From contig JAZDKT010000078.1 in NCBI GenBank assembly GCA_043802685.1, forward strand, positions 1-41,469: a DNA stretch of 41,469 nt, read 5' to 3'. This document shows, one piece after another, positions 8,871 through 26,655 of this stretch. The position numbers and the translations under genes are program-made. Position 1 is the stretch's first letter; the number at the start of each line of letters is the position of its first letter. The stretch is from Candidatus Falkowbacteria bacterium (GTDB lineage Bacteria > Patescibacteriota > Patescibacteriia > Patescibacteriales > VMTK01). Below the pieces are notes generated by a model. The model made no database searches. It saw only the letters and a program-made list of their open reading frames with translations, and was not told where the DNA came from.

Positions 8871-8886
8871 AAAAACTAAATAATTT

Positions 8887-9096: not shown

Positions 9097-9104
9097 ATTT
9101 GATG

Positions 9105-9937: not shown

Positions 9938-9939
9938 GG

Positions 9940-11199: not shown

Positions 11200-11236
11200 T
11201 TCGTTAACTCTTTAACTCGTTAACTCGTTAACTAAA
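11197..11236. repeat. CTCGTTAAC-family word array (direct orientation relative to 8840-8870)
   Basis: caattcgttaactctttaactcgttaactcgttaactaaat. Confidence 0.85.
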
Positions 11237-11252
11237 TAATTTTTTAATTAAT

Positions 11253-12473
11253 TTATCCGACAAACCTAACCCCATCATCACCTTTCTTTACTTCTTTAAT
11301 AATCCTCTCAACCATCTCGCCGGTAATATCCCGCCCGCCCAAGCCGACTATAAAACTTTGAATTTTAGCTTTAATTTTGCCTTGAGCCGCTGATTTAATA
11401 TCAGACGCAAGCGGACCCATCTCACCTAAAGTAATTGCTTTATCTAACACGGCAATATATTTCGCTTTTTTGATTATTTTTACAATTTCATCCGCCGGAA
11501 AAGGACGATAAGACTTTATTTTTAAAACTCCAACCTCACCCCCTACCCCTCTCCTTCGTAAGGAGATGGGAGATTTGTATTTATCAACCGCATCTTTAAT
11601 CGTGCCGACTACCGAACCCATGGCAACTAAAATTATTTTTGGTCTGAATGAACCATAATATTCCACCAAGCCATTGTCAATAATTGTTTTCGTGTTTTCG
11701 TGTTTTCGTGTTTTTGTGTTTTTGTGTTTTTGTGTTTTTGTAATTATTTCATGGTATTTTTTATATTCTTCGTTAATTAAATCTATGCTCGCAGTCAAGT
11801 CATCATGCAGCTCCTGCCTTATTTCCATATAATAAGCAGGCGAGGCAAAAGCGCCCATTGTTACCGGATTGGCCGGATCTAAAAATTGTCCTTTTTTCGG
11901 CTTGTAATCCGGCAAATATTTTTTAATCTGCTCTGCTTCCGGGACAACCACTGAATCATAAGTATGCGTTAAAACAAAACCGTCAACATTAACAATAACC
12001 GGCAGATTTGTCTGCTCTGCTATTTTGTAAGCCATAATATGCTGATCAACCGCTTCCTGGTGATTTTCCGCGAACAGCATAATCCAGCCGGCGTCGCGGA
12101 CAGTCATGGCATCCTGATGGTCGTTCCAGATAGTAATCGGCGCCGACACTCCCCTGTTGGCGCAAGTCATCACAATCGGCAAGCGCATTCCGGCTATGTT
12201 AAACACGACTTCAGCCATTAGCAAAAGCCCCTGCGAGCTGGTCGCGGTATAAACGCGAACTCCCGCGGCGCTGGCGCCTTCAATGATTGAAGCGGCCGCG
12301 AACTCGCTTTCCGCCCGCACATATTCATAATCCGCCTCTCCGTCAGCTTTAAATTTAGCCAAATCTTCCACAATATGAGTCTGCGGCGTAATCGGATAAG
12401 CGGAAATAACCGCCGGCTTTATATTTTTTATGGTTAACGCAATAGCGCGAGATCCTTCTAATATTTGTTTCAT
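11253..12473 (-). CDS. porA: 2-oxoacid:ferredoxin oxidoreductase alpha subunit
   Basis: The N-terminus EGSRAIALTIKNIKPAVISAYPITPQTHIVEDLA and the TATSSQGLLLM motif are typical of PorA/VorB alpha subunits. It carries two in-frame repeat-encoded insertions (see findings). Confidence 0.85.
   Translation of the reverse strand: MKQILEGSRAIALTIKNIKPAVISAYPITPQTHIVEDLAKFKADGEADYEYVRAESEFAAASIIEGASAAGVRVYTATSSQGLLLMAEVVFNIAGMRLPIVMTCANRGVSAPITIWNDHQDAMTVRDAGWIMLFAENHQEAVDQHIMAYKIAEQTNLPVIVNVDGFVLTHTYDSVVVPEAEQIKKYLPDYKPKKGQFLDPANPVTMGAFASPAYYMEIRQELHDDLTASIDLINEEYKKYHEIITKTQKHKNTKTRKHENTKTIIDNGLVEYYGSFRPKIILVAMGSVVGTIKDAVDKYKSPISLRRRGVGGEVGVLKIKSYRPFPADEIVKIIKKAKYIAVLDKAITLGEMGPLASDIKSAAQGKIKAKIQSFIVGLGGRDITGEMVERIIKEVKKGDDGVRFVG
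11685..11741. repeat. tandem 8-mer array (coding-sense ACACAAAA / ACACGAAA) inside porA
   Basis: tgttttcgtgttttcgtgttttcgtgtttttgtgtttttgtgtttttgtgtttttgt encodes ...TKTQKHKNTKTRKHENTKT... Confidence 0.9.
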
Positions 12474-12482
12474 AATTTAATA

Positions 12483-12598
12483 TATAATCCGAATCTACGA
12501 ATTATATCCAAATGCTCCGAATAGCTGCGAATCAAATTAAAGCTATTTGGATAATTCGTATTTGGGGCATTCGGATACATTCGTAAATTCGGATTATA
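12483..12598. repeat. intergenic inverted word array (CCGAAT / ATTCGG family)
   Basis: tataatccgaatctacgaatt... faces ...aattcggattata, with imperfect inverted halves of ~45-58 nt. Confidence 0.8.
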
Positions 12599-12599
12599 C

Positions 12600-12857
12600 T
12601 TATTTTTTATCTAATTCCATCTTAATCGCCTTCACCGGGCATTCTTCGGCGCAGATTCCGCATCCTTTGCAGAAATTATAATCCGTTTTCGGCTTTAAAC
12701 CGTTTTTCCCTGATACCATTTTTATGGCGTTTTCCGGGCAAACCCTTGAGCAGGTACCGCAGCCAATGCATTTTTTAAAATCTGTCCAGGGAATATAGGT
12801 GCGCCAGCCGCCAGTTTTATTATTTACGGTTGAGCTTGGTTTTGCGGTTATGTTCAT
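12600..12857 (-). CDS. porD: 2-oxoacid:ferredoxin oxidoreductase delta subunit (2x[4Fe-4S] ferredoxin)
   Basis: Two CxxCxxCxxxCP motifs (CIGCGTCSRVCP and CKGCGICAEECP). The start is placed at the ATG at 12857 (MNITAKPSS...) because the longer track ORF begins inside the GTTACGC repeat array. Confidence 0.8.
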   Translation of the reverse strand: MNITAKPSSTVNNKTGGWRTYIPWTDFKKCIGCGTCSRVCPENAIKMVSGKNGLKPKTDYNFCKGCGICAEECPVKAIKMELDKK

Positions 12858-12864
12858 ATTCTCT

Positions 12865-12974
12865 CGCGTAACGCGTAACGTGGAACGCATAACGCATTTA
12901 TTAAAAATAATAAAATTCAATACTCTATGCTCTATTATACACTCGTTACGCGTTACGCGTTACGCGTTACGCGA
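12865..12974. repeat. GTTACGC-family inverted arrays flanking an AT-rich loop (porG-porD spacer)
   Basis: cgcgtaacgcgtaacgtggaacgcataacgc (12865-12897) faces ctcgttacgcgttacgcgttacgcgttacgcg (12943-12974). Confidence 0.85.
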
Positions 12975-13604
12975 GTATGCTTTCTTAATCGCTTGAATAT
13001 TTTTATCTGTTATTTCAGCGCCTTTTTCGCCAAACTTCTGCTTGATTGCTTTTTCAAGCGAACTCAAGCTGACTAAACCGGCAACTTTCGCGAACGCTCC
13101 AAGAATAACCGTATTAACCAGATTTTTGCCGATTATTTCAAGAGCGATTTTAGTGGCGTCAATCGGATAAACCCCGCACCTTTTAAGCAGTTTTTCGTAA
13201 TTTCTTTCACTAAAATTTTTATTTTTTTTAGAACTCTGCTTAAAAGGTGCGGGGTAAATATTCTTCTCGGGTAAATTAATCCCTTGTTTTTTAATTTCGC
13301 TTTTTGTCTTTGCCGTATTGATTATAACTAAAGTATTTTTATCGCAGCCATGCGCGACATCAATCGTATCAAGCAAGGTTGAATCTTGTATTATTAAAAC
13401 ATTCGGATGATAAACATGCTCGCGCGTTCTAATCGGCTTGTCGTCTATTCTGGCGTACGCTTCAATCGGCGCGCCTGTTCTTTCCACGCCAAAAGAAGGA
13501 AATGCCTGCGCCTGCTTTCCGTCGTTAAAAGCCGCTATCGCGATGAGTTCCGCCGCGGTAACAACGCCTTGACCCCCGCGGCCGTGTATGCGTATTTGGA
13601 ACAT
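12960..13604 (-). CDS. porG: 2-oxoacid:ferredoxin oxidoreductase gamma subunit
   Basis: The N-terminus MFQIRIHGRGGQGVVTAAELIAIAAF is typical of PorG. It contains an in-frame palindromic insertion at 13172-13254. Confidence 0.85.
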   Translation of the reverse strand: MFQIRIHGRGGQGVVTAAELIAIAAFNDGKQAQAFPSFGVERTGAPIEAYARIDDKPIRTREHVYHPNVLIIQDSTLLDTIDVAHGCDKNTLVIINTAKTKSEIKKQGINLPEKNIYPAPFKQSSKKNKNFSERNYEKLLKRCGVYPIDATKIALEIIGKNLVNTVILGAFAKVAGLVSLSSLEKAIKQKFGEKGAEITDKNIQAIKKAYSRNA

Positions 13605-13641
13605 AGTTTTTATGAAAATATGAAATAATGAAAATATGAAA

Positions 13642-14043
13642 TTATTTTATATAAACCTTATTTTGATTTTGCAAAAAATTAATATACCCGTTGATTTTCC
13701 ATTCTGTCTTTTTGCCTAATTCATAAAGTTCTTTAAATTCTTCCGCGCTAATATAACTTTGATCTTTAGCCGTATATAAATGATCAATAGTTTCTAATGT
13801 TGATCCTCTGGAAATTCTACAAAATTGTATATTCTCCTGAAAATTATATCTACCATATCCTTCGGCAATATTTGCAGTAATTGAAATAGCAGACCTTTTT
13901 ATTTGTTGAGTTAAACAAAACTTTTCTTCATTTGGAAATTTTTTACTAATTATGTAAATTTTATTTTTAAACTCTCTTCCTGTTTGCCATGCCCCAATGT
14001 TTTCAAAGGATTTGTATTGATTTAATTTTATGGTTTGTTCCAT
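13642..14043 (-). CDS. four-helix-bundle protein (23S rRNA intervening-sequence protein family)
   Basis: The pattern F..E.....Q.+RSA.SI.ANIAEGYGR.......F..I+.GS..E....L is characteristic of this family. Confidence 0.75.
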   Translation of the reverse strand: MEQTIKLNQYKSFENIGAWQTGREFKNKIYIISKKFPNEEKFCLTQQIKRSAISITANIAEGYGRYNFQENIQFCRISRGSTLETIDHLYTAKDQSYISAEEFKELYELGKKTEWKINGYINFLQNQNKVYIK

Positions 14044-14150
14044 ATAATTATAAAAATACGAGAATATAAAAATATTTAAAATAATTTTTTAGATTTATTT
14101 TCTTAATTTATAGATATTTTCATAATCTTGTATTTTCATAATTTCATATT

Positions 14151-14843
14151 CTAGTATTCTCGTATCAACTCCTCCACCACCCCCGCGAACACCTCATACG
14201 GTATATCCCCTTTAACCATATATCCATTTATAAACCATGTCGGCGTGCCTGCGACTCCCAGCTTCTCTCCTTCGGCGTAATCTTTTTGAATTTGCGCGGC
14301 GTATTTATCGCTATCCAAACATTGGCTGAATTTAACAGTGTCAGCGCCGATTTGCTTGGCTAATCCAACCAGCTGATCCTTGGCCGCGCCTTGATTTTGA
14401 AAAAGTTTATCGTGCATCAGCCAAAATAATCCCTGCTCCCCGGCGCATCTGCCTGCCATGGCCAAGCTCAAAGACTCTTCATGCATTGGATAATCCCTAA
14501 AAATTATTTTTACGTCATCTTTATGCTTAACGCTTATTTCTCTTATTTTGGAAAAAGAATTTTTACAGTAAGAACAAGCAAAATCGGCAAATTCCACGAT
14601 TGTTACTTTCGGCTTGGCGGAACCGATCCAATAATTGCCATCGCCTTCCGCGGAATATTGCTTGCCGTTGATAACTGATTGGCTTAAAATATTCCGGTTA
14701 GCCGGCTCCCCGCTTTTTATTTTTCGCGCAACATCAAATACATAAAACCCGGAAGCGACAATAAGCGATAAGATAAAAATCGCGAAAATAATCAATAAAA
14801 TGCCCCACCATTTTTTATACCAAAATTTATTAGTTTTCAACAT
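14151..14843 (-). CDS. membrane-anchored DsbA-like thiol:disulfide oxidoreductase
   Basis: N-terminal TM anchor and the thioredoxin-fold CxxC site FADFACSYCKNS, with the DsbA-like downstream pattern GTPTWFING. Confidence 0.75.
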   Translation of the reverse strand: MLKTNKFWYKKWWGILLIIFAIFILSLIVASGFYVFDVARKIKSGEPANRNILSQSVINGKQYSAEGDGNYWIGSAKPKVTIVEFADFACSYCKNSFSKIREISVKHKDDVKIIFRDYPMHEESLSLAMAGRCAGEQGLFWLMHDKLFQNQGAAKDQLVGLAKQIGADTVKFSQCLDSDKYAAQIQKDYAEGEKLGVAGTPTWFINGYMVKGDIPYEVFAGVVEELIREY

Positions 14844-14880
14844 TGATAAATTATGATTTTTAGATTATGATATAAATAGA

Positions 14881-15009
14881 TTATAATGCGAATCCGCAAA
14901 TTTATGCAAATACTACAAATTACGAATTACGCAAATAATTAATTAGCTAATTCGCATTATTAGAATTCGCAGCATTCGTATATAATTTGTAGATTCGCAT
15001 TATTATAAT
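14881..15009. repeat. intergenic inverted word array (GCGAAT family)
   Basis: ttataatgcgaatccgcaaattt... faces ...aatttgtagattcgcattattataa. The 25-mer aatttgtagattcgcattattataa is identical to the one at about 7789-7811. Confidence 0.85.
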
Positions 15010-15197
15010 TATTATAGCATTTTTCTATGAATAAACAAAATTCATTGGATGAGCTGCAGCGGGATGTTGAAAAAAAGCATGACAAACGCGTTAAGCGGAA
15101 AGTGCCGGTTATGAAAGTTGATGGAGCGAAGGCAAAGCAGCTGCAAAAAATTATTATTAAAACTAATAAAATTTAATTATTAATAAAGCCCAACCGA

Positions 15198-15635
15198 TTG
15201 GACACATTCGGGCAAGCCGCAGAAGAGATGAAAAAAATATTCCCTTCCGCGCCTGCTATTATTAGCAAGGGCGATTATGCTAGCAAAAAAGCATGGGGGC
15301 TGTTAGCCAGCATAGATCTTTATGAATGCGACCCCAAACTGATTAAAAGCCCAAAGGCGATAAAAAAATTTGTCGTTGAGCTTTGCGAGGTTATTAAAAT
15401 GAAAAGGCATGGCGATCCTTTAATAGAGCGCTTTGCCGAAGGATTATTGGAGGGGTATTCCATGATACAATTCATAGAAACATCTTCAATCACGGCGCAT
15501 TTTGACGAAGAAAAAAACAGGGCGTTCGTAGACATTTTCAGCTGCAAGTATTTTAACGCGAAACAAGCCATGAAATTTTGCCAAAAATTTTTTAAGGCAA
15601 GCGGCTATAAAATACAAACTTTAATTAGAGACTAA
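15198..15635 (+). CDS. S-adenosylmethionine decarboxylase-like (AdoMet_dc fold) protein
   Basis: LLASIDLYECDPKLI...GYSMIQFIETSSITAHFDEEKNRAFVDIFSCK parallels the prokaryotic AdoMetDC pattern (dlygC ... ESH.s.HT.PE ... .D.f.C). Start uncertain: TTG at 15198 or ATG at 15228. Confidence 0.5.
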   Translation: MDTFGQAAEEMKKIFPSAPAIISKGDYASKKAWGLLASIDLYECDPKLIKSPKAIKKFVVELCEVIKMKRHGDPLIERFAEGLLEGYSMIQFIETSSITAHFDEEKNRAFVDIFSCKYFNAKQAMKFCQKFFKASGYKIQTLIRD

Positions 15636-15640
15636 ACTTG

Positions 15641-16087
15641 ATGGCGCTAAAAGAATATCAGGTTAAAAGAAAATTCAATAAAACCACTGAACCAAAAGGA
15701 GAAATTAATAAAAAAAATTTGTCCCGTTTTGCGGTGCAAAAGCATCAGGCGCGAAATCTGCATTATGATTTTCGTTTGGAAATGAACGGCGTTCTTAAGT
15801 CCTGGGCAGTGCCCAAGGGAGTGCCTGAAGCAAGGGGCGTAAAACGGCTGGCTGTGCAGGTTGAAAACCACCCGGTGGATTATATAAATTTTTCCGGCAT
15901 AATACCGGAAGGCGAATACGGAGCCGGCGAAGTCAAGATATGGGACAAAGGAAATTGGAAGCTAATCAGCGGAAGCTTAACAACCGGCAGCATGAAATTT
16001 ATTCTGAATGGTAAAAAATTAAAAGGAGAATACGCGATCTTTCAGCTTAAAGATAATAAAAAAAATTGGCTCATTTTTAAAATTTAA
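15641..16087 (+). CDS. stand-alone LigD-type 3'-phosphoesterase domain protein
   Basis: FAVQKHQARNLHYDFRLEMNGVLKSWAVPKGVP....KRLAVQVENHPVDY..F.G.IPEGEYGAGEVKIWD is the LigD PE-domain signature. Confidence 0.8.
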   Translation: MALKEYQVKRKFNKTTEPKGEINKKNLSRFAVQKHQARNLHYDFRLEMNGVLKSWAVPKGVPEARGVKRLAVQVENHPVDYINFSGIIPEGEYGAGEVKIWDKGNWKLISGSLTTGSMKFILNGKKLKGEYAIFQLKDNKKNWLIFKI

Positions 16088-16162
16088 AGAATATAGGAAT
16101 TAAGCTTTTGAATACTAAATTTTTAAAGCCATTGTTTTGTCTATTTGGAAAATCCCTGCAGA

Positions 16163-16232
16163 CATTGTTAAATTGTTACATTGTTAAATTGCTAACATTA
16201 AAACAATTTAACAATTTAGCAATGTAACAATT
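16163..16232. repeat. intergenic inverted word array (AATTGTTA family)
   Basis: cattgttaaattgttacattgttaaattgctaac faces aatttaacaatttagcaatgtaacaatt. The same words recur at 20855-20882. Confidence 0.8.
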
Positions 16233-16390
16233 CAGATATTAATATAAGCGATAGCTGTATATGTAAAATGTGTATAAATTATATTCAAACGCGTAATTCC
16301 TAAAACTAATAAAATAATTTTAACGCTCGATACATATCTCGGGCGTTTGCTTTTTAAACGGCTTTGGGCTAAAATATAGTATATGAATAA

Positions 16391-16482
16391 CGAATTAGGA
16401 ATTAGGAATTATGGTTTTTAAAATTGTAATTTATTGTTTTATTATCCATAATTCCTAATTCATAATTCATAATTCATAATTC
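16391..16482. repeat. intergenic inverted word array (GAATTAG / CATAATT family)
   Basis: cgaattaggaattaggaattatgg faces ccataattcctaattcataattcataattcataattc. Confidence 0.85.
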
Positions 16483-16490
16483 AAAAACTA

Positions 16491-17501
16491 ATGAACTACA
16501 TTATAGTTATCGCTTTAATTTTGTTTTCAGCGCTTTTTTCCGGGCTTACTCTGGGATTTTTTAGTTTGAACCGCGACGATCTAAAAAGAAAAGCGCATCT
16601 TGGGGACAAACGGGCAAAAAAAATTTATAGCTTGCGCAAAAACGGAAATCTTCTGCTCTGTACTTTGCTTATAGGAAATATCGCGGTAAATTCCGCTATT
16701 TCTATTTTTTTGGGATCAATCGCCAGCGGTGTAACCGCCGGAATCACGGCTACCGGTTTAATAGTAATATTCGGAGAAATAATTCCGCAAGCCAGCTTCT
16801 CGCGCCATGCCTTAACGCTTGGCGCGAAATTCGTCTGGCTGGTGCGGATTCTGGTGATTATCTTATATCCTGTTTGCTGGCCGCTGTCTAAAATACTGGA
16901 CAAGATTCTGGGGGATGAAATGCCGACAATTTATTCCAAGCATGAAATAGCAAAACTGATAGAAGACCACGAAGACTTGAAAGGAAGCGATGTTGACCGC
17001 GATGAAGAAAGGATTATCAAAGGCGCCCTGTCTTATTCGGAAAAAACCGTAGAGGACATAATGACTCCCCGCACGGAAGTTATCCTGCTGCAAGCGGATC
17101 AAATTCTGGACAAAAAAATAATAACCAAAATTAAAAAATCAGGGCATTCAAGAATACCTATATATGAAAAGGATCCGGATGATATTATCAGTGTTTTATA
17201 CGTAAAAGACATGCTGGGAGAAAACCTGAAAAATAAAACAGCCGGCGAGATCGCGAAAAGAAGCGCGATTTTCGTAGATTGCGGCAAGCCGTTAGACGAC
17301 TTGCTCAATGAATTCAAAAAGAAAAAAAATCACTTATTTATTGTCTTAAATCAATTCGGCGGAATTTCAGGCATTGTTACCATTGAAGATGTGCTGGAAG
17401 AAATAATCGGCGTGGAGATAGTGGATGAATTTGACGTATATGAAGACCTGCAAAAGGTAGCAAAGAAAAAAGCAAAGAAAAAAAATCTTAACAAAGTCTA
17501 G
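16491..17501 (+). CDS. CNNM/DUF21 transmembrane domain + CBS-pair protein (HlyC/CorC-type transporter family)
   Basis: Four N-terminal TM helices with LTLGFFSL. and the GEIIPQ motif, then a CBS-pair region (VEDIMTPR ... GIVTIEDVLEEIIG). It lacks the CorC_HlyC C-terminal domain. Confidence 0.8.
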   Translation: MNYIIVIALILFSALFSGLTLGFFSLNRDDLKRKAHLGDKRAKKIYSLRKNGNLLLCTLLIGNIAVNSAISIFLGSIASGVTAGITATGLIVIFGEIIPQASFSRHALTLGAKFVWLVRILVIILYPVCWPLSKILDKILGDEMPTIYSKHEIAKLIEDHEDLKGSDVDRDEERIIKGALSYSEKTVEDIMTPRTEVILLQADQILDKKIITKIKKSGHSRIPIYEKDPDDIISVLYVKDMLGENLKNKTAGEIAKRSAIFVDCGKPLDDLLNEFKKKKNHLFIVLNQFGGISGIVTIEDVLEEIIGVEIVDEFDVYEDLQKVAKKKAKKKNLNKV

Positions 17502-17727
17502 ATGTAATGCGAACCTTTTAATAATATAGAAACTTATAGAAACTTGCTCCTCGCTGTCGCTCGTCGCGAAATTTATAGAAACTTAATCGCAGTTTGCCAA
17601 GTAGCTATTTAATTTCCATAAGTTTCGCTCCGAAGCGAAGCTGAGGAGTAAATTTCTATTAGTTTCTTTTGAATATTCGCAATTAGCTGGTTAACATTTA
17701 TTTGCAGATTAGCATTATATTATTTGT

Positions 17728-20700
17728 ATGGATAACTACAACCACCAAAAAATTGAAAAAAAGTGGGCGGAAAAATGGGTTAAGGATAAAACTTTTACGC
17801 CGGATCTGAAAAAAGCCAAAAATCCTTATTACGCGCTGTTTATGTTCCCCTACCCCAGCGCGGAGGGTTTGCATATCGGCAATTTTTACGCGTTTACTTG
17901 CGTGGATGTGATGGCGAAATATAAAAAATTGCAGGGCAAAGATGTATTTGAGCCGATCGGCTTTGACGCTTTTGGCATGCACAGCGAGAATTACGCCTTG
18001 AAAATTAACGAAACCCCGAGAAAAATGCTTAACCGAACCATAGCTAATTTTAGGAACCAGCTAAGCTCGGCCGGATTGGGATGCGATTGGACGCGTGAAG
18101 TGGATACGACAGATCCTGAATATTATAAATGGACTCAGTGGATATTTGCCAAGCTTTTTGAAAAAGGCCTGGCTTACCAAAAAGAAGCTCTGCTGAACTG
18201 GTGTCCGGGCTGTAAAACAGTCCTGGCTGACGAGCAGATTGAAAACGGGGTCTGCGAAAGATGCAAAACCGCTCCGGAAAAAAAGATCATGAAGCAATGG
18301 TTTTTTAGAATAACCGCTTACGCCCAGCGCCTGCTTGACGGCCTGGAAACAATGGACTGGTCGGATATTACCAAGCACGCGCAGAGGAATTGGATTGGGA
18401 GATCGGAAGGAGCGATGATTAAGTTTGAAGTAAGAAGTAAGAAGTTAGAAGTAAAAAAAATCATTGAAGTCTTTACTACTCGCCCGGATACTTTATTTGG
18501 GGCGACTTATTTTGTCATGTCTCCGGAACATCCTCTTGTTGAAAAGATAACTTCTCCCGAGCAAAAAAAAGAAGTGGAAAAATACATTAAAAAAACAGGG
18601 GCAAAATCCGACCTTGAGCGCGCTGAAGCCAAAGAAAAAACAGGAGTATTTACCGGCGCTTACGCCGTGAATCCGGTAAACAATGAAAAAATTCCTGTCT
18701 GGATCGCTGATTATGTCTTAATGGGCTATGGCACCGGCGCGATTATGGCAGTGCCGGCGCATGACGAGCGGGATTTTGAATTTGCCAAGAAATATGGTTT
18801 GCCGATAAGGCAGGTTGTGGCGGGAAAAACACAAAAACACAAAAACACAAAAACACAAAAACACTGTTTAATTATTCATGGTTCACCGCGGTGTGACAAA
18901 AGTAAAGATACGGATTATACACCCGATAATATAAAGCACTGGCTTGGCTGGTTAAAGAAAAGATTAGAAAATAATAATTATAAGGTATATAATCCGCAAA
19001 TGCCGACTCCGTGGGAGCCGGATTATCAGGAATGGAAAAAACAAATTGATAAATTAGATATTAACGAAAATTCTGTGATTGTTGGCCATAGCGCTGGCGG
19101 CGCGTTTGCTGTTCGCTGGTTGAGTGAAAATAAGAAAAAAATTGACAAATTAATACTTATTGCAGCCGGCAAGACTATTACAGATGATAATAAGAGATTG
19201 CATAATTTTTATGATTTTAAAATTAATCAAAATATAAAAAATAGAGTTAATAAAATAATTATTTTTGTTTCCGAAGATGAAAAAAAATATAGAATAGCAA
19301 GCGCTAAATTATATCAAAAAGAATTGGGCGGTGAATTGCAGATATTAAAAGATAGAGGACATTTCACTGTTGCAGCTAGCCCAATCAATAAAGAGTTTCC
19401 AGAATTATTAGAAGAAATTCTAAAACAAGAATGTTTTGCCGGCGATGGCATAAACATAAACTCTGATTTTTTAAACGGCTTAACAACTAAAGAAGCAAAA
19501 GAAAAAATAATTCAATGGCTGGAGGAAAATGAACTGGGCAAAGGAACTGTGAATTATAAATTGCGCGACTGGTGCATTAGCCGGCAAAGATACTGGGGTC
19601 CGCCTGTGCCGATTGTTTACTGTAATAAATGCGGGGTTCAAGCCGTGCCTGAAAAAGATTTGCCGGTGGAGCTGCCTGAGATGGAAAAGGGCTGGGAGCC
19701 GGCCGGAGACGGACGCGGACCGCTGGCCAAAGTAAATAAATTTATGAAAACCACTTGCCCGAAATGCGGCGGTCCGGCCGAACGCGAGCCGGATGTAATG
19801 GATAATTTTTTAGATTCTGCATGGTATTACTTCCGCTATATTTCTCCGCGCGACAACAAAAACATATTTGATAAAAAATTAAGCAAAAAATGGCTGCCGG
19901 TGGATCTGTATGTCGGCGGCAACGAACACGCAGTACTTCATCTGATGTACACCCGCTTTATCGCCATGGCTTTTCATGATCTTGGTTTAATTGATTTTGA
20001 CAATCCTTTTAAAAAATTCCGAGCCAACGGCATGATCCTGAAAGACGGCAAAAAAATGAGCAAGTCAAAAGGCAATGTCGTCAGCCCGGAAGAATACGGC
20101 GCCAAAGTCGGCTATGACGCGCTAAAAACTTATCTTTTATTTTTGGGGCCGTTGAATGAAGACCGATCATTTAGCGATGCGGGCGTGCAAGGCGCCAAGC
20201 GCTGGATGGAGAGGATAGATCGGCTTAAAGAAAAAATTCACCCCGTTAAATATGTATCGCCCCGTGAAACCGCTTCGTGGCAACGGGGCAAACTTGACGG
20301 CGGTCTTAAACTACCGTCTGTAGCTAATTCATTTAACGGGGTAAAGAATAATTATGAAGATGATAAAAAAATAATAAAAAAACTGCATCAAACCATTAAA
20401 GCGGTAACAGACGATTTTGAAGATCAAAAATACAACACGGCAGTGGCTCGCCTGATGGAGCTTACCAACAGCTTGAGCGCGGAAAAAAATATTTCCGGTA
20501 AAACTTGGGAAAAATTCTTAATTCTTATCGCTCCTTTCGCGCCTGCCTTAGCCGAAGAGCTGTGGTCCTCCTTCGCTAAAGCTACGGCGGATGAAAGCAA
20601 AAAATGCAAACAGTCAATTTTCAATCAAAGGTGGCCGAAACATAATCCTAAATTAATTAAAGACGATATTATTAATCTTGTGATTCAAATCAACGGCAAA

Positions 20701-20856
20701 TTGCGCGATACTATTGAGGCGCCAATTAATATAAGCGAGAAAGAAGCGCAAAAAATCGCTTTGGAGAGTGATAAGATTAAAAAGTGGACGAACGGCAAAA
20801 AAATTATTAAAGTGATATTTGTTAAGGGGAAACTAGTGAATATTGTAATAAAATAA
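17728..20856 (+). CDS. leuS: leucyl-tRNA synthetase with several insertions, including an alpha/beta-hydrolase domain
   Basis: HIGN (HIGH-type) motif, CP1 editing-domain TTRPDTLFGATY, YKLRDWCISRQRYWG, and KMSKS (KMSKSKGN). At 1042 aa it is about 200 aa longer than typical bacterial LeuRS. Confidence 0.92.
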   Translation: MDNYNHQKIEKKWAEKWVKDKTFTPDLKKAKNPYYALFMFPYPSAEGLHIGNFYAFTCVDVMAKYKKLQGKDVFEPIGFDAFGMHSENYALKINETPRKMLNRTIANFRNQLSSAGLGCDWTREVDTTDPEYYKWTQWIFAKLFEKGLAYQKEALLNWCPGCKTVLADEQIENGVCERCKTAPEKKIMKQWFFRITAYAQRLLDGLETMDWSDITKHAQRNWIGRSEGAMIKFEVRSKKLEVKKIIEVFTTRPDTLFGATYFVMSPEHPLVEKITSPEQKKEVEKYIKKTGAKSDLERAEAKEKTGVFTGAYAVNPVNNEKIPVWIADYVLMGYGTGAIMAVPAHDERDFEFAKKYGLPIRQVVAGKTQKHKNTKTQKHCLIIHGSPRCDKSKDTDYTPDNIKHWLGWLKKRLENNNYKVYNPQMPTPWEPDYQEWKKQIDKLDINENSVIVGHSAGGAFAVRWLSENKKKIDKLILIAAGKTITDDNKRLHNFYDFKINQNIKNRVNKIIIFVSEDEKKYRIASAKLYQKELGGELQILKDRGHFTVAASPINKEFPELLEEILKQECFAGDGININSDFLNGLTTKEAKEKIIQWLEENELGKGTVNYKLRDWCISRQRYWGPPVPIVYCNKCGVQAVPEKDLPVELPEMEKGWEPAGDGRGPLAKVNKFMKTTCPKCGGPAEREPDVMDNFLDSAWYYFRYISPRDNKNIFDKKLSKKWLPVDLYVGGNEHAVLHLMYTRFIAMAFHDLGLIDFDNPFKKFRANGMILKDGKKMSKSKGNVVSPEEYGAKVGYDALKTYLLFLGPLNEDRSFSDAGVQGAKRWMERIDRLKEKIHPVKYVSPRETASWQRGKLDGGLKLPSVANSFNGVKNNYEDDKKIIKKLHQTIKAVTDDFEDQKYNTAVARLMELTNSLSAEKNISGKTWEKFLILIAPFAPALAEELWSSFAKATADESKKCKQSIFNQRWPKHNPKLIKDDIINLVIQINGKLRDTIEAPINISEKEAQKIALESDKIKKWTNGKKIIKVIFVKGKLVNIVIK
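18826..18864. repeat. tandem 8-mer array ACACAAAA inside leuS
   Basis: aaaacacaaaaacacaaaaacacaaaaacacaaaaacac encodes ...KTQKHKNTKTQKH... Confidence 0.9.
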
Positions 20857-20903
20857 ATTGTTAAATTGCTCAATTGTTAAGCGGAGAAGATTTTGAAAAA
20901 CAA

Positions 20904-22115
20904 ATGAAGACAATAAAAGAAGAAAAAATCCCCATAAAAATATGGCTGGACGATATTGAGCCGGGCGCGGAAAAGCAGGCAAGAAATATCGCCAATCTGC
21001 CCGGAGCATTCCACCACATCGCCATTATGCCTGACGCCCATGTGGGCTATGGCATGCCTATCGGCGGAGTTTTAGCCACTGAATATATAATCGCGCCCAA
21101 CGCGGTGGGAGTTGATATCGGCTGCGGCATGATTGCCGTAAAAACTTCTATCAGGGAAATTGACGAATATTCTTTAAAACAAATTTTAAATCAGCTGCGC
21201 GGAAACATACCAACCGGCTTTACGCACCATAAACAGGCGCAAAGCTGGGAAGGGTTTGACAGGGCGCCGGATGTTCCTGTAATACAAAAAGAGCTTGATT
21301 CCGCGCGCAACCAGATTGGCACATTAGGCGGAGGCAACCATTTTTTGGAAATTTTACGGGAAATTGATGATTCAAAATGGCAAATAAAAAGCAATGGCAA
21401 TGTTTGGCTGATGCTTCACAGCGGCTCCCGCAATTTCGGCTATAAAACAGCGAATTTTTTCCATAGAAAAGCCAAGCAATGCTGTGAAAGTAATAACATA
21501 AAATTGCCTGACAAGGACTTGGCTTTCTTAAAATTAGATTCCCAAGACGGGCAAGATTATTGGCAAGCCATGAATTATTGCCTGGAATTCGCCCAAGCTA
21601 ACCGCGATTTAATGGCAAAGCGCTTCATGGATATTTTTAGCAATATTACCAACTGTGCATTTATAAACTTTGCCCTGGAGCGCGGCTATAAAAGTGAAAT
21701 TAAAGAAAAATATATCAGCATCCACCACAACTACGCGGCAAAAGAAAGCCATTTCGGGAAAGAAGTTATTGTCCACCGCAAAGGCGCGACGCGCGCCTTT
21801 GCCGGCCAGATTGGAATAGTTCCCGGAAGCATGGGAGCGCCAAGCTTTATTGTAGAAGGACTGGGCAATCCTGAAAGCTTTATGAGCTGCGCGCATGGAG
21901 CCGGCAGAGCAATGGGTCGGCGGGAAGCCAATAAAAAATTAACAAAAGAGCAGGCCGACCAAGCGATTAAAGGAATAGTTTTCGCCGGCTGGCAGGGTAA
22001 ATTTGACGAAGCGCCGCAAGCTTACAAAAATATTGAACAAGTGATAAAAAACCAAAGCGATTTGGCAAAGCCCATAGTCAAATTAAAGCCGATGGCTGTT
22101 ATGATAGGACAATAG
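20904..22115 (+). CDS. rtcB: RNA ligase RtcB
   Basis: PDAHVGYGMPIGGV, GGGNHF, SGSRNFG, HHNY and CAHGAGR motifs. The start is placed at the ATG at 20904 (MKTIKEEKIPIKIW) because the track TTG at 20874 lies inside a repeat word. Confidence 0.9.
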   Translation: MKTIKEEKIPIKIWLDDIEPGAEKQARNIANLPGAFHHIAIMPDAHVGYGMPIGGVLATEYIIAPNAVGVDIGCGMIAVKTSIREIDEYSLKQILNQLRGNIPTGFTHHKQAQSWEGFDRAPDVPVIQKELDSARNQIGTLGGGNHFLEILREIDDSKWQIKSNGNVWLMLHSGSRNFGYKTANFFHRKAKQCCESNNIKLPDKDLAFLKLDSQDGQDYWQAMNYCLEFAQANRDLMAKRFMDIFSNITNCAFINFALERGYKSEIKEKYISIHHNYAAKESHFGKEVIVHRKGATRAFAGQIGIVPGSMGAPSFIVEGLGNPESFMSCAHGAGRAMGRREANKKLTKEQADQAIKGIVFAGWQGKFDEAPQAYKNIEQVIKNQSDLAKPIVKLKPMAVMIGQ

Positions 22116-22116
22116 A

Positions 22117-22292
22117 TCGCATAACGCATAACTCGTAACGCATAACGACCTGTCTTATTAACTCACCTGACACGCAAACTTTACAATACTTTACTTTAAA
22201 AAAATTTATTAGTTTTTAAATACAATAATTAGAAGCTTTAATTCCACAACTCGTTACGCGTTATGCGTTATGCGTTATGCGTTATGCGTTAC
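22117..22292. repeat. GTTACGC/GTTATGC-family inverted arrays flanking an AT-rich spacer
   Basis: cgcataacgcataactcgtaacgcataacg (about 22117-22148) faces ctcgttacgcgttatgcgttatgcgttatgcgttatgcgttac (about 22250-22292). Confidence 0.85.
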
Positions 22293-23429
22293 TTCAACGG
22301 CAATTTATCCCAAGGTTTTGTCGCCTTGTTTTCCGGCAGAATGATCCAATTCGCCGCCGGCGGCTTGATTGGCTTGTTTCTGCCGATTTTTTTATTAACC
22401 AAGCTAAACTATCAAGTTGAATATGTATTTTTGTATTATATCGCCGGCCATGTAATTTATCTCTTAATCCTGCCGATAGGGGCTCAGCTTTTAAATAAAA
22501 TAGGCCTGCGCCGCTCCCTTCGGCTTAGCGTGATTATGGACGGGGCGTTTTATACCTGCCTCTTCTTTTTGGACAAAAATCCTAATCTATTTTTAATATT
22601 ATCCGTGGTTGCCTTAACTTTTTCTCGCATGCTGTTTTGGCTGCCTTTTCATACTGATTTCGCCAAGTTCACGGACAAGCGTAACAGAGGCAAGGAAGTA
22701 AGCTTGATTTGGGCTACTCACTCGTTCTTAAGCGTACTTATGCCGATAGCCGCCGGATTTTTAATAATGCGGTTTGATTTTGACATAGTTTTTGTTATCG
22801 CGATAATTCTTTACTTATCAGCCGGCATCCCGTTTTTAGCGCTTCCCAGAACACACGAGAGTTTTAGCTGGGGAATTTTGGAAACCTGGAAAAAATATTT
22901 TGCGAAAGAGAATAGAAAGCTTATTCTCGCGAACACGGCCAATGGCGCGGAAAGCTCTGTCGGACTGATTATATGGCCTATTTTTATTTGGCAAATATTT
23001 AACGGCAATTACTTGGAAGTTGGCGCGATATCATCATTAATCATCTTTGTTTCTATTATTCTTCAACTAATCGCGGGGAAATATACCGATCTTTTTAATA
23101 AAAGAAAGATGCTGCATTGGGGAACCGCGCTATACGCCATTGGCTGGCTGGGAAAAATATTCGTCTTAACGGCATCTCAAGTTTTTTTTATCGGAACATA
23201 CCATGTTTTCACGAAAATTTTCAAAGACACGCCTTTTGATACATTAAATTATGAAATGATGGCTGACCGCGGACATTATGTTGATGAATATACTGTTTTA
23301 AAAGAAATAGCCGTTCAAATGGGAAAAATACTGATGCTGATTTTTGCCATTTTAGTGGCTTTAAACTTCGGGCTTAACTGGACTTTCGCCTTGGCGGCCG
23401 TTGCCTCGCTTTTTATTAATTTGATGTAA
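22263..23429 (+). CDS. MFS-type multi-pass transporter, substrate unknown
   Basis: About 12 hydrophobic segments. Start uncertain (22263, 22284 or 22341): the first two ATGs are provided by the GTTATGC repeat array itself. Confidence 0.55.
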   Translation: MRYALCVMRYFNGNLSQGFVALFSGRMIQFAAGGLIGLFLPIFLLTKLNYQVEYVFLYYIAGHVIYLLILPIGAQLLNKIGLRRSLRLSVIMDGAFYTCLFFLDKNPNLFLILSVVALTFSRMLFWLPFHTDFAKFTDKRNRGKEVSLIWATHSFLSVLMPIAAGFLIMRFDFDIVFVIAIILYLSAGIPFLALPRTHESFSWGILETWKKYFAKENRKLILANTANGAESSVGLIIWPIFIWQIFNGNYLEVGAISSLIIFVSIILQLIAGKYTDLFNKRKMLHWGTALYAIGWLGKIFVLTASQVFFIGTYHVFTKIFKDTPFDTLNYEMMADRGHYVDEYTVLKEIAVQMGKILMLIFAILVALNFGLNWTFALAAVASLFINLM

Positions 23430-23544
23430 ACACTCAAATCTACAAATAGCACTCAAATCTACGAATGCAATGCAAATCTACAAATAAAAACTCGCGCTTA
23501 AAAATAGCAAACGAGTTTTACAAAGCAAAATGTCGCTTTAAATA

Positions 23545-23847
23545 TTATCTTGAAGCGCTAATCACGACATCTAATTCAGCATCCGGAGCGCAAACGGTAA
23601 TTCGGCCATTGGTACTTTTGGCTATATGATAACCAGCCCCATTTGTGGTAGCACCGCTTGGATCATAAGGCATTGAGACCAGATATGTTTCATCGGTGGT
23701 TAGCGCGGAAAGGTCAACAATACTAGTGCAAACGCCTCCGGTTTTACATATTTCATTCGTTGCAGTGCCGGAGCAGTCGGCTGATGTAGGAATATTGGCG
23801 GGAAGAGTTCCGGTATTATCAACAGCATACTGATGCGCCGCGTTCAA
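23545..23847 (-). pseudogene. pilin-like C-terminal globular fragment lacking the N-terminal hydrophobic helix
   Basis: The pattern NAAHQYAVDNTGTLPANIP.....C.........C....C ... YH looks like the variable head of CPR type IV-pilin-like proteins. The frame is closed by a TAA 4 codons upstream of the TTG start and there is no FTLIE-type leader. Weak call. Confidence 0.3.
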
Positions 23848-23886
23848 ATTTCCATTAACTTATGCGGCTTCGCCTACTTTAAATTT

Positions 23887-24252
23887 TTAAAAGTCCGCTT
23901 TCTCTTTAATAGCTTGGGCTTCCACAGACATAAGGCATTGGCCATTAATCATACCGCCTCGTTCAATACTTAAAATCTTACATTTAATGCCGCCCTTTAT
24001 CCACCCTGTTTTAGTGATGTGTAATTTTTCTTTCGCCTCAACATTACCTTCTGCCTTGCCAGCTACAATAATGCTGTTAGCCTTAATGTCAGCCTTGACC
24101 ATGGCCGACTTACTAATCTTAACATTTTTAGTATTTTCAATCATGCCATCTATCTTGCCGCTCACAACCAAATCTGCCAGGGATGATAATTTTCCCTCAA
24201 GTTTGGCTGAAGAATCAATAATGGTAGTGGAATATTTATTTTTTCCAAACAT
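23887..24252 (-). CDS. bactofilin (DUF583) family cytoskeletal protein
   Basis: Repetitive beta-helix pattern IDSSAKLEGKLSSLADLVVSGKIDGMIENTKNVKISKSAMVKADIKANSIIVAGKAEGNVEAKEKLHITKTGWIKGGIKCKILSIERGGMINGQ. Confidence 0.75.
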   Translation of the reverse strand: MFGKNKYSTTIIDSSAKLEGKLSSLADLVVSGKIDGMIENTKNVKISKSAMVKADIKANSIIVAGKAEGNVEAKEKLHITKTGWIKGGIKCKILSIERGGMINGQCLMSVEAQAIKEKADF

Positions 24253-24306
24253 ATCTTGGTTTCCAGAATCTAACGCAACACTATGTAAAAGCTAATAATT
24301 GATTTA

Positions 24307-24618
24307 TTACTGTTTAGTATTGAATTTAAGCTGTTTTTCCGGCTTTTTCGCCATCTTCCTTGCCCTAACATAATCTTCTTCTATCTCTATCTTTTTGGCT
24401 CGCGAACTTAAATAAGAATCGGTTTCCCACCAATCAATTCCCATTTCCTTAGCTTTATCCACTGAAGCTATCATTAACCTAATTTTAATTGTGAGCAACT
24501 CCACATCAGCAAGTTTAATCTGGATGTCGCCGGCAATAACAATGCCTTTGTCTAAAACGCGCTCTAAAATATCAGCTAAATTCGTAGCTTCTATACCATG
24601 GCTAATTTGTTCTGACAT
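24307..24618 (-). CDS. GvpA-family minor gas vesicle protein (GvpJ/GvpM/GvpS-like)
   Basis: LADILERVLDKGIVIAGDIQIKLADVELLTIKIRLMIASVDKAKEMG is the GvpA/J/M core (alpha-beta-beta-alpha) signature. Confidence 0.75.
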   Translation of the reverse strand: MSEQISHGIEATNLADILERVLDKGIVIAGDIQIKLADVELLTIKIRLMIASVDKAKEMGIDWWETDSYLSSRAKKIEIEEDYVRARKMAKKPEKQLKFNTKQ

Positions 24619-24662
24619 AAATTTTTTTTAATATTTATAATTGTTTAGTCCTAATAATTTTA

Positions 24663-25238
24663 TTACATTAAATTGCCCAGGGGTCCTAAATCTAAATTCA
24701 ATTCTTCATCTTCAATTCCAAAAACCGTTTTTAGCTCCTGCATTTTCTTCTCCATGGCTTTAAAAGTCATTCCTAACTTTTGAATTTCCGTATTAGAAAG
24801 AGATCCTTTTTGCATCCGCCTAATAACCTCTTTTTCCATTAACCTCCTTAATAACTCCACGAGAGTTAAAACTAATTTTGCTATGCCTTGTTCCGCTTTT
24901 TGGGGATTATCAGCATCAATGAGCTTGGGAATACTTGCTTCTGCCCTCTTTATTTCTTGCTCCAGCTTGGCAATATATTCTAAATCTTCCTTGGTTGGTT
25001 CTCGGCTGGGATAATAATCAGTCCCGGCGCTTTTCCAATTTTTACCGGACATTTCCTCTACTTTAGAAATAGAGGTTAGAAGAACTCTTAATCCTAAATA
25101 TATAAGATCTACATCAGCTACTCTTATTGCTACATCCCCGTTTATCACAGCCCCTTTTTCAAGAACTTTATCTAAAGCATCAATAAGAGTTACTCGCTGT
25201 TCTTTTGGTTTGGATAAAATTATTAGTGTATTTGCCAT
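24663..25238 (-). CDS. apparent fusion of a GvpJ/M-like (GvpA-family) domain and a GvpK-like domain
   Basis: aa ~15-62, TLIDALDKVLEKGAVINGDVAIRVADVDLIYLGLRVLLTSISKVEEM, is the GvpA-family core. aa ~113-175, QKAEQGIAKLVLTLVELLRRLMEKEVIRRMQKGSLSNTEIQKLG, is the GvpK signature (GLA.LVLT.VELLR.L.E+QA.RR...G.L). Confidence 0.7.
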   Translation of the reverse strand: MANTLIILSKPKEQRVTLIDALDKVLEKGAVINGDVAIRVADVDLIYLGLRVLLTSISKVEEMSGKNWKSAGTDYYPSREPTKEDLEYIAKLEQEIKRAEASIPKLIDADNPQKAEQGIAKLVLTLVELLRRLMEKEVIRRMQKGSLSNTEIQKLGMTFKAMEKKMQELKTVFGIEDEELNLDLGPLGNLM

Positions 25239-26071
25239 TTAATAAAATTGTAAGGCGGCCATGGGCCGCTATACTCAAAATTAAAACCTTTAGATTTATA
25301 TTCTTTATTTAATTTATTAATTTCTCTTGCAAAGTCTTTTAATTTTTCTTCTGAAATAAGAAAAATCGCATTTAAAATCATGGGCAAAGATTTACCTGTC
25401 AATTCTTTTTCTAAAATTTTACCTTTGGTTCCAGCAACCGCGCATTCTTTTAAATTTCTAAAAAAACTGTCAATATAATTTTCCAAAGCTCTGTCTGCTT
25501 CCCTTAAAACAGCATCATCTATCTGCTTTTGCATAAAATATGCCGTTCCTTCGGGAAGCAGGGCTATTTCTGTTTCTTTTTCCAGAACCACCGGACTAAC
25601 TCTTTTAACTTCATTACTAAAAGTTTGGCGGTTTAAATACGCCTTTACCGACCACTCTTGTTTTCCTGATAAATTTCTTAGATTTTCTTTGAATTTAAGG
25701 TAATATGTTTTAAGCATTTCCTTTATTTTTTCTTCGCTGTTAAAAATAGCGCCGAATTTCATGGGAATTGCCTCTTTTAATCTTTTATTTTTAAAGGGAT
25801 TCTTTTCTGCTGGAAAAGGAGAAAATTGAAATTCCATCGCTTCCTCTATTACCTGCTCATGAATTTGAGCTTTTTCTTTTACCCATTTTAAATTTTCTTG
25901 CGCTTTATTTTGAATTTCTTTTGAGCTGAATTCCTTTAAAGAAACATTGCTAACCACTGCTTCTAAATCCCTGAAAAAGACAGTAAAAACTTGACCCCTA
26001 TCAATTCCTTCTGCGGAAAATTTGGAATTAGTTTTTGCTCTAACGCAATAGAGATATAATCCCTGTTTCAT
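25223..26071 (-). CDS. GvpF/GvpL family protein
   Basis: N-terminal GLYLYCV start, the A.VS pattern (LEAVVSNV), and the C-terminal FEYSGPWPPYNF motif, as in GvpF/L. Confidence 0.8.
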   Translation of the reverse strand: MKQGLYLYCVRAKTNSKFSAEGIDRGQVFTVFFRDLEAVVSNVSLKEFSSKEIQNKAQENLKWVKEKAQIHEQVIEEAMEFQFSPFPAEKNPFKNKRLKEAIPMKFGAIFNSEEKIKEMLKTYYLKFKENLRNLSGKQEWSVKAYLNRQTFSNEVKRVSPVVLEKETEIALLPEGTAYFMQKQIDDAVLREADRALENYIDSFFRNLKECAVAGTKGKILEKELTGKSLPMILNAIFLISEEKLKDFAREINKLNKEYKSKGFNFEYSGPWPPYNFIKWQIH

Positions 26072-26085
26072 AAAGTTTGAATAGC

Positions 26086-26394
26086 TTATTCTTCGCTGCT
26101 GATTCCAGTATCTACTCTTTTTCGCATTTCTTTTCGCTCATAGCCAAGTAAATTGCCTTTTGCATCTAGCCTAATGTTATAAATTCCTAACACATCCATC
26201 CCGTCCGGGATAGATTTCTTTTCAACAATTTCAACTTTAACTACCCATTCTTCGCCTTCTTTTTTAAATCCTATCCCGGCTGGCGAGGAAAAACCGGTTA
26301 AATCAGCCAGCTGTTTTTTTGCTTTCTCAACAAGCTCTTTCGGCTCAAGATTTGATTTTACATCATTAGAAATGTTCTTTATTGTTTTTGTCAT
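26086..26394 (-). CDS. gvpO: gas vesicle protein GvpO
   Basis: AKKQLADLTGFSSPAGIGFKKEGEEWVVKVEIVEKKSIPDGMDVLGIYNIRLDAKGNLLGYERK parallels haloarchaeal GvpO (A+EQL.ELTG ... GW.V.VEVVE+.R.PD..DV...YEV.LD..GE..GY.R). Confidence 0.75.
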   Translation of the reverse strand: MTKTIKNISNDVKSNLEPKELVEKAKKQLADLTGFSSPAGIGFKKEGEEWVVKVEIVEKKSIPDGMDVLGIYNIRLDAKGNLLGYERKEMRKRVDTGISSEE

Positions 26395-26418
26395 AATAAT
26401 ATAAATTTAATAAATTAT

Positions 26419-26652: not shown

Positions 26653-26655
26653 AAA

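Follow-up and report, generated by a model that had tools for sequence, protein, structure and literature searches.

Few proteins are as conserved as aminoacyl-tRNA synthetases, which are used both as phylogenetic markers and as drug targets. Bacterial leucyl-tRNA synthetases (LeuRS; TIGR00396; structures 1H3N/2BYT and, from Escherichia coli, 4AQ7) combine a catalytic core, a connective peptide 1 (CP1) editing domain with Thr-rich and Asp motifs, the KMSKS motif, an anticodon-binding domain and a C-terminal domain. All of these are shared by the LeuRS analyzed here, which is encoded by leuS in a 41,469-nucleotide contig stretch from an uncultured Patescibacterium, a Candidatus Falkowbacteria bacterium (GenBank assembly GCA_043802685.1, JAZDKT010000078.1, positions 1 to 41,469; the whole stretch is hereafter called the window). 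Unlike these reference LeuRS, the window protein carries a 204-aa enzyme in the loop equivalent to residues 364-374 of the Thermus thermophilus (Tt) protein, as well as an extra 35-aa segment at aa 838-872. The relatives of the nested enzyme are the YdeN/RBBP9 serine hydrolases (PF06821; 1UXO, 2QS9, 7OEX), with which it shares the fold, the HG and GHSxG motifs, the position of the triad acid, the His of a GHF motif, and a length of ~190 aa; it differs from them in being nested rather than free-standing, in having a Glu at the position of Asp138, and in its low sequence identity (20-24%) to members of solved structure. As an aminopeptidase, RBBP9 handles aromatic and hydrophobic residues. Its substrates are aminoacyl groups whose alpha-amine is free, and a diaminopropionic acid (Dap) trap caught Leu/Ile, Phe, Tyr, and Trp (PMC8866121).

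Nested-domain architectures of this kind are known. NCBIfam NF040702 (isoleucyl-tRNA synthetase, N-acetyltransferase domain-containing), which we know by name only, also unites a class Ia synthetase with an unrelated enzyme domain, but both host and guest are different, and the guests are not homologous. Rickettsia palindromic elements are selfish DNA inserted in frame in genes. Inteins and other in-frame selfish DNA likewise settle in frame in permissive sites of essential genes, with a patchy distribution, signs of lateral transfer and alternative occupants. In the candidate phyla radiation (CPR), rRNA genes carry insertion sequences (PMC11270868). The free-standing trans-editing deacylases YbaK/ProX, AlaX, and DTD, whose folds are unrelated to that of the hydrolase, would be functional analogues, through their cleavage of an aminoacyl ester, if the latter took part in editing. 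In full-text literature searches and the AARS Online overview, we found no hydrolase or NUDIX domain described as nested in LeuRS or in a CPR aminoacyl-tRNA synthetase, nor any description of insertion hot-spots with alternative guests in LeuRS. The first reading of this DNA, made from the sequence alone (the sequence-only reading), had known of no description of the architecture; our literature searches agree with this, but the proteins themselves are on record in NCBI and UniRef, where they bear generic names. Thus, while the principle is familiar, a guest hydrolase in LeuRS and the interchangeability of guests are apparently undescribed.

The leuS open reading frame (ORF; 17728..20856, stop codon included; forward strand, like all leuS features below) is uninterrupted and encodes 1042 aa. 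It is of the bacterial type, scoring 930.4 bits against TIGR00396 (leuS_bact; cut-off 548.4) in three matched stretches, and its product also aligns to Tt LeuRS (1H3N) in three stretches. The N-terminal part of the host (aa 1-367; 17728..18828) aligns to Tt residues 1-363 and contains the first half of the catalytic domain and most of the CP1 editing domain. The C-terminal part (aa 572-1042; 19441..20853) aligns to Tt 375-579 and 637-877 and contains the end of CP1, the second catalytic half, the anticodon-binding domain, and the C-terminal domain. The host motifs are all present: HIGN (aa 49), TTRPDT (aa 250), AHDERD (aa 344), and KMSKS (aa 776). Two departures from other bacterial LeuRS concern the host itself: HIGN (17872-17883) replaces the usual HxGH class I signature, a clade-wide trait (consensus GLHIGNF) in which H49 and G51 are invariant across the LeuRS alignment, and the leucine-specific domain is absent (20041-20067), the counterpart of Tt 580-636 being missing so as to leave ...ILKDGKKMSKS. 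Between the window and its ortholog P0121, omega (the dN/dS ratio) is 0.11-0.13 in the host parts, and the LeuRS host is, to judge from its sequence, functional and under purifying selection. In a full-length AlphaFold2 (AF2) model (pLDDT 87.9, pTM 0.77), host and guest are both confidently folded, and pLDDT falls below 50 only at aa 370-375, a linker next to the hydrolase, and at aa 841-873. An exact-protein look-up of the window LeuRS returned no record.

Alignment of the protein to plain LeuRS and to 1H3N sets the limits of the insert at aa 368-571 (nt 18829-19440; ~204 residues), within 10 nt of the 18826-19430 first proposed. The host sequence ends at aa 365-367 and picks up again at aa 568-572 (..CFAGDGININS). 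Because the Tt alignment stops at Tt 363 (window aa 365) and restarts at Tt 375 (window aa 568), the ~204 residues stand in for an 11-residue loop (Tt 364-374). The insert had been placed after the end of CP1, which needs correction since it lies inside this domain, where it replaces the Tt 364-374 loop. Indeed, the Pfam editing-domain model matches aa 220-377 with its positions 1-153 of 185 and is interrupted at about position 150; the insert is found ~20 residues past the conserved editing Asp of AHDERD, and ~40 further CP1 residues lie downstream of it. At the DNA level, a blastn comparison with L021, the leuS of P0122, which bears a NUDIX domain at this site, shows homology over 17675-18806, a break, and homology again from 19471, which delimits a cassette of ~664 bp (18807..19470) with no homology to the sister allele. 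The other structural points of the sequence-only reading were borne out: a single ORF runs across both junctions, and an 8-bp tandem array, AAAAACAC, is present at the 5' junction in 5.0 perfect copies (18825..18864; Tandem Repeats Finder, 100% matches). The array encodes the N-terminal linker TQKHKNTKTQKH, and both array and linker are identical in P0121. A change of the array by one or two units creates a stop at aa 376-395, and a change by three units keeps the frame. The linker on the N side of the hydrolase has 12 residues and is predicted to be disordered, that on the C side has ~5 residues, and neither sequence is conserved among relatives.

The guest is a YdeN/RBBP9-type alpha/beta serine hydrolase (aa 377-566; 18856..19425), as had been proposed, and profile, predicted fold, and catalytic residues all agree on this identity. 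PF06821 (Ser_hydrolase) matches the insert alone with 53.7 bits (E = 3e-14) and the full protein with 49.3 bits, for a curated cut-off of 22, and the family profile matches 1UXO at 7e-22 and RBBP9 at 1.5e-17. Since the insert covers positions 2-189 of the 189 of the family hidden Markov model (HMM), it corresponds to a whole gene product of ~190 aa minus the Met, the consensus of 107 free homologs being MKNxIIIHG...GHSxGG...GHF...EFPELLEEILx. Most members of the family are free-standing, and the nearest of them to the insert, Patescibacterial proteins of ~190 aa, are at most 51% identical to it. An AF2 model of the hydrolase domain built on the free-homolog alignment (pLDDT 95.0, pTM 0.91) retrieved human RBBP9 (7OEX, 2QS9, 9FCR) and Bacillus subtilis YdeN (1UXO) as its top seven Foldseek matches in the PDB, with TMq of 0.74-0.79 and TMt of 0.78-0.86, and with E-values of 4e-12 to 1e-10 for 7OEX, 2QS9, and 1UXO; the E-values of the next-best matches are ~10^4 times higher.

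The motifs CLIIHG (aa 380), GHSAGG (aa 453), and DRGHF (aa 542), on which the first identification relied, are all found as quoted. The oxyanion-hole HG motif, His384-Gly385 (18877..18882), is kept in all 36 nested copies that we aligned. Ser455 (19090..19092), the nucleophile in GHSAGG, is profile-aligned to Ser75 of RBBP9, and a Ser occupies this position in 35/36 nested and 186/187 free copies. In Glu516-Asp517-Glu518 (19273..19281), Glu518 is aligned to the RBBP9 triad acid Asp138 ('GSTDDP'), a column that holds D or E in 33/36 nested and 180/187 free copies. His545 (19360..19362), the catalytic His in DRGHF, is aligned to the His of 'CGHF' in RBBP9; it is present in 36/36 nested copies and invariant in the free-homolog alignment. 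The insert thus has a Ser-His-acid triad with a GxSxG nucleophile elbow, the acid being Glu518 with Asp517 adjacent.

Three other identities were considered for the insert and rejected. A separately expressed gene lying inside leuS was rejected because the insert lacks both an N-terminal start codon and a stop codon. A promoter and terminator scan within it gave only uninformative, AT-driven consensus matches. The insert begins near a Cys, as inteins do; however, no Hint/intein Pfam profile matches it, its end (...EEILKQECFA) is not the C-terminal His-Asn of inteins, and the hydrolase fold accounts for its entire length. It further differs from inteins in having no homing endonuclease and in that the guest is a conserved metabolic-type enzyme, presumably retained in the mature protein. 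Finally, no YbaK, AlaX, or DTD deacylase was matched in the Pfam and NCBIfam scans or among the top 50 Foldseek PDB matches.

Searches for LeuRS homologs with the same insertion, which the sequence-only reading had seen as a way to verify its claim, identified a direct ortholog and more distant proteins. The ortholog P0121 (1025 aa, 89% identical by BLASTP) shares the architecture of the window protein. It is found on seven contigs, in ENA and NCBI, with a leuS DNA ~92% identical to that of the window and the same gene order, namely CNNM, leuS, RtcB, a major facilitator superfamily (MFS) gene, and then a gas-vesicle cluster. LeuRS only 46-57% identical to that of the window also carry PF06821 at the equivalent host position. 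A genome scan recovered close LeuRS relatives only, and no genome with two leuS matches was among them.

The comparison of 120 related LeuRS, stripped of their inserts and with guests mapped by Pfam, revealed at least five insertion hot-spots: site A at the start of CP1 (window aa 236-245), site B in the CP1 loop that holds the window hydrolase, site D in the zinc-finger region (~aa 635), site E (~aa 718), and site F before the anticodon-binding domain (~aa 838-872). YdeN-type hydrolases occupy sites A, B, and F, and a more distant alpha/beta hydrolase is found at D. NUDIX domains occur at B and E, Ham1/ITPase and PD-(D/E)XK nuclease domains at A, and nucleotidyltransferase-like domains at B. 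The canonical Nudix box is kept in 15 of the 22 nested NUDIX domains. Some LeuRS contain two or three nested enzymes at once, such as P0216 (1442 aa, the largest), P0237 (1398 aa), P0207 (1353 aa), and P0122 (1254 aa, DNA in L021), one three-guest combination being Ham1 at A, a hydrolase at B, and a hydrolase at D; P0382 holds a whole hydrolase domain at site F. Contigs of metagenome-assembled genomes (MAGs) from close relatives break exactly at two of these hot-spots, L009 ending at leuS aa 241 (site A) and L011 starting at window position 20253, inside a 105-bp element at site F, which suggests that repeats or differences between strains interrupt the assembly at these sites.

The family is not confined to LeuRS. 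An exhaustive search of 1.84 billion representative proteins recovered 1685 relatives of the insert, and the hydrolase was also found nested in ValRS, UvrB, the Der/EngA GTPase, a GT2 glycosyltransferase, and YdjC, or fused terminally to NUDIX, Ham1, and peptidase S51 domains. Two free-standing copies checked in their genomic context are both genuine separate genes. The neighborhoods of free homologs consist of variable, small miscellaneous genes; none is beside leuS, and no clear vehicle is seen in them.

Several observations bear on how the hydrolase came to lie in the window gene. Beyond the direct ortholog, the closest LeuRS have hosts 78-91% identical to that of the window and lack the hydrolase at site B, which is either filled with NUDIX (P0122, P0124, P0128) or empty (P0125, P0129). 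The nearest nested inserts, 59-74% identical to that of the window, are located at site B of P0241, P0222, P0231, and P0230, whose hosts are only ~50% identical. The identity table by itself already shows a discordance between host and insert. Composition differs as well: GC content in 200-nt windows is 0.25-0.38 in the insert and 0.42-0.56 in its flanks, and GC at third codon positions (GC3) drops from 0.488 and 0.448 in the two parts of the host to 0.255 in the insert, so that the AT-richness first noticed by eye is confirmed by both measures. Expression level cannot account for the GC3 gap, since a single mRNA carries both host and guest. In the sister allele, GC3 is likewise 0.187 in the site-D hydrolase and 0.296 in the site-B NUDIX, for 0.35-0.42 in the host.

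The comparison between window and ortholog points to a recent event. Synonymous divergence (dS) reaches 0.28-0.34 in the host but just 0.06-0.07 in the insert, and omega in the insert is 0.19, a figure based on few substitutions. A mismatch map shows a 532-bp tract of 100% identity (18808..19339) against a background of ~92% identity; it is the sole identical run of more than 230 bp in window positions 7805-23466, and we calculate the probability of such a run by chance at ~7-8% divergence to be far below 1e-15. Its left end coincides with the left edge of the cassette and its right end falls within the cassette. In P0237, a host motif is duplicated on both sides of the hydrolase (AFTGEGVNINSDF ... 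CFDSEGINTSSDF), downstream of NUDIX, in what looks like the scar of recombination between differently occupied leuS alleles. Taken together, the discordance, the cassette edges, the dS contrast with its identical tract, and the composition indicate that the cassette was probably acquired laterally and took part in a recent recombinational exchange, the recombination being deduced from one pairwise comparison and one allele comparison. A transposable element, including a miniature inverted-repeat transposable element (MITE), was rejected as the source of the hydrolase cassette, which has no terminal inverted repeats, no clear target-site duplication, and no transposase domain. The only boundary repeat is one 18-nt direct repeat of 78% identity (18787-18804 and 19424-19441), which possibly arose by chance. 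An exact 23-mer from the 5' end of the insert had no match in JGI metagenome contigs, and no relatives were found in viral contigs scanned with the family alignment.

We somewhat favor the view that the window LeuRS carries a laterally acquired, catalytically competent hydrolase as an autonomous passenger, its route and its activity being what we infer. According to this proposal, leuS would be translated as one 1042-aa chain in which LeuRS folds normally and the hydrolase, tethered to a surface loop of CP1 by two short linkers, folds independently with its own HG oxyanion motif and its own triad of Ser455, His545, and an acid (Glu518 or Asp517). It would work as an RBBP9-type hydrolase of acyl or aminoacyl substrates, either an esterase or an aminopeptidase acting where the alpha-amine is free, and thereby do the job of the free-standing ~190-aa homologs of Patescibacteria. 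LeuRS would be a permissive, constitutively expressed carrier, the hydrolase would be no partner in tRNA proofreading, and the ~660-bp cassette would have entered the leuS lineage of the window laterally. An autonomous passenger is favored because unrelated hosts and LeuRS sites distant from CP1 also carry the domain, and because other guests occupy site B in sister alleles.

A number of points weigh against this proposal. The activity of the Patescibacterial members is read from their sequences, and the benefit of a carrier, or 'piggy-back', is a rationale and not an observation. The triad acid appears to be a Glu with a neighboring Asp, whereas Asp is commoner in the family, and the substrate-pocket loops of RBBP9 (including Glu108) align unreliably to the insert, so that we make no claim on substrate specificity. 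The discordance trees were built by neighbor-joining and carry no support values, which leaves the number of events uncertain. The identical tract spans only ~80% of the insert and the divergence between window and ortholog is mosaic elsewhere too, with a gas-vesicle block 99.3% identical; ordinary homologous recombination could therefore explain the tract. Lastly, of the 30 long proteins within the best 150 of the 1685 relatives, ~17 are LeuRS, a predominance that might stem from a functional link in addition to structural permissiveness.

A wider version of the passenger proposal, which we put forward tentatively and ourselves find rather doubtful, is that Patescibacteria possess a class of non-splicing, in-frame enzyme cassettes that move laterally between permissive loops of essential genes, replace each other, and stay as working domains. 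The class would include YdeN-type hydrolases, NUDIX, Ham1, nucleotidyltransferases, and PD-(D/E)XK nucleases, with LeuRS, ValRS, UvrB, and Der as hosts.

About equally doubtful to us is a cassette that is purely selfish or neutral, spreading in frame among permissive loops of essential genes with an activity irrelevant to the host. Under this scenario only tolerated in-frame insertions would be seen, because out-of-frame or disruptive ones are lethal. The patchy distribution and host/insert discordance, the foreign-looking GC3, the 532-bp identical tract starting at the cassette edge, and the recombination-scar look of the P0237 duplication are consistent with it, as are a ~105-bp in-frame element with terminal inverted repeats in the same gene and the colonization of essential CPR rRNA genes by insertion sequences. 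However, no mobility function lies in or beside the cassette, the Pfam scan showing no intein/Hint, endonuclease, or transposase; clear target-site duplications and relatives on viral contigs were not observed in the searches given above; and nearly all nested copies, although they diverge by 35-74% in sequence, retain the catalytic residues, which argues for selection on activity. Neutral domain capture, one of the two possibilities raised by the sequence-only reading, is thus the closer of them to the evidence, yet incomplete given that each catalytic position is kept in 33-36 of the 36 nested copies.

The other possibility, a second proofreading or deacylase activity, does not emerge as the leading explanation: we consider it improbable that the hydrolase is coupled to LeuRS, either as a deacylase or proofreading site in cis, acting on mischarged tRNA-Leu or on the aminoacyl-adenylate, or as an aminopeptidase releasing hydrophobic amino acids for charging. 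Its location inside the CP1 editing domain and the aminoacyl chemistry of RBBP9 speak for such a coupling, and so does the finding that editing-type class Ia synthetases (LeuRS and ValRS) are the commonest hosts among the long matches. RBBP9 is reportedly also a valacyclovir-activating enzyme, going by the title of a paper cited in PMC7730578. Valacyclovir consists of a nucleoside analogue esterified with an amino acid. Yet UvrB, Der, GT2, and YdjC also host nested members of this family; hydrolases are found at LeuRS sites D and F, far from CP1; site B holds NUDIX or a nucleotidyltransferase-like domain, or is empty, in the closest LeuRS; and most family members are free-standing. Moreover, the host has kept its canonical editing motifs, and there is therefore nothing to compensate for. 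We regard as extremely improbable an artefact, be it a chimeric metagenome assembly or a leuS pseudogene decaying beside an intact copy, since even though the window is probably metagenome-assembled, related MAG contigs break within leuS and a second leuS could lie beyond the 41 kb, the frame is intact at both junctions, the architecture recurs in P0121 (seven contigs, conserved synteny) and in LeuRS 46-57% identical, the low host omega goes with complete catalytic motifs, and the full-length AF2 model is confident in host and insert.

A complete, apparently active foreign enzyme within the editing domain of LeuRS is unusual, and so is the presence of interchangeable guests at one loop in sister lineages. 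These features suggest that essential proteins of genome-reduced Patescibacteria act as platforms on which small accessory enzymes are acquired and expressed. If mobile cassettes exist as proposed, their way of moving and of hitch-hiking on the expression of a host gene would be unlike that of inteins, introns, and transposons. The pattern also shows protein engineers where LeuRS, ValRS, UvrB, and Der naturally tolerate insertions, and it offers a tractable system in which to follow the origin and spread of domain insertions. In practice, marker-gene alignments and completeness estimates in Patescibacteria can be distorted by nested domains.

The second in-frame insertion of the window leuS, at site F (~105 bp; 20238..20341; aa 838-872), is lacking in the ortholog P0121. 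Its ends are inverted repeats of 12 nt (20240-20251 and 20331-20342), its GC content is 0.51, a strong DNA hairpin is predicted for it (z = -3.0), and it encodes a 35-aa segment predicted to be disordered (pLDDT <50 at aa 841-873). It is also present in the MAG contig L011, and the start of this contig inside the element suggests a multi-copy repeat. In these features, it resembles in-frame palindromic elements or MITEs.

Short tandem arrays are not restricted to leuS. The reverse complement of the leuS array unit (TGTTTTTG, 7.1 copies) is found at 11685-11741, in frame within an ORF on the reverse strand (11253..12473) that encodes a PorA-like pyruvate:ferredoxin oxidoreductase subunit; it is translated as ...ITKTQKHKNTKTRKHENTKTII..., including the peptide KTQKHKNT of the leuS linker. 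Near-perfect 7- to 8-bp arrays are spread throughout the window, for example, at 6544-6600, 8798-8877, 11201-11233, 12865-12973, 16164-16232, 16447-16483, 22118-22147, 22252-22291, and 23431-23486, with units that include GTTACGC (eight copies), CGTTACG, CGCATAA, CGTTATG, TTAACGAG/TTAACTCG, and ATTGTTAA/AACAATTT. Those compared with the ORF list are mostly intergenic, and some form inverted array pairs. An intergenic segment of ~105 bp (8783-8889) has a reversed match between RtcB and MFS in L001 (window ~22124-22281), and 9101-9209, whose match upstream of leuS in L021 holds in either orientation, is thus palindromic; both look like dispersed intergenic repeat elements.

Three further features of the window are worth recording. 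A run of 16 G near its end (41403-41418) may be a sequencing or assembly artefact. A small gene on the reverse strand (13642-14043) has an ortholog in L001 that carries the Pfam domain 23S_rRNA_IVP, and its GC3 is very low at 0.19, for 0.41-0.46 in its neighbors, which makes it a further outlier in composition. Finally, this Patescibacterial contig contains a gas-vesicle cluster (23474-30855, continuing to ~37771) which, by homology to the annotated L001, comprises GvpA-type, GvpK, GvpL/F, GvpO, and GvpG genes and an ArsA/ParA-like ATPase. The block, whose GC3 is 0.26-0.35, is the 99.3% identical one mentioned above, the relative being L001 and the remainder 92-94% identical, which suggests a recently exchanged island.

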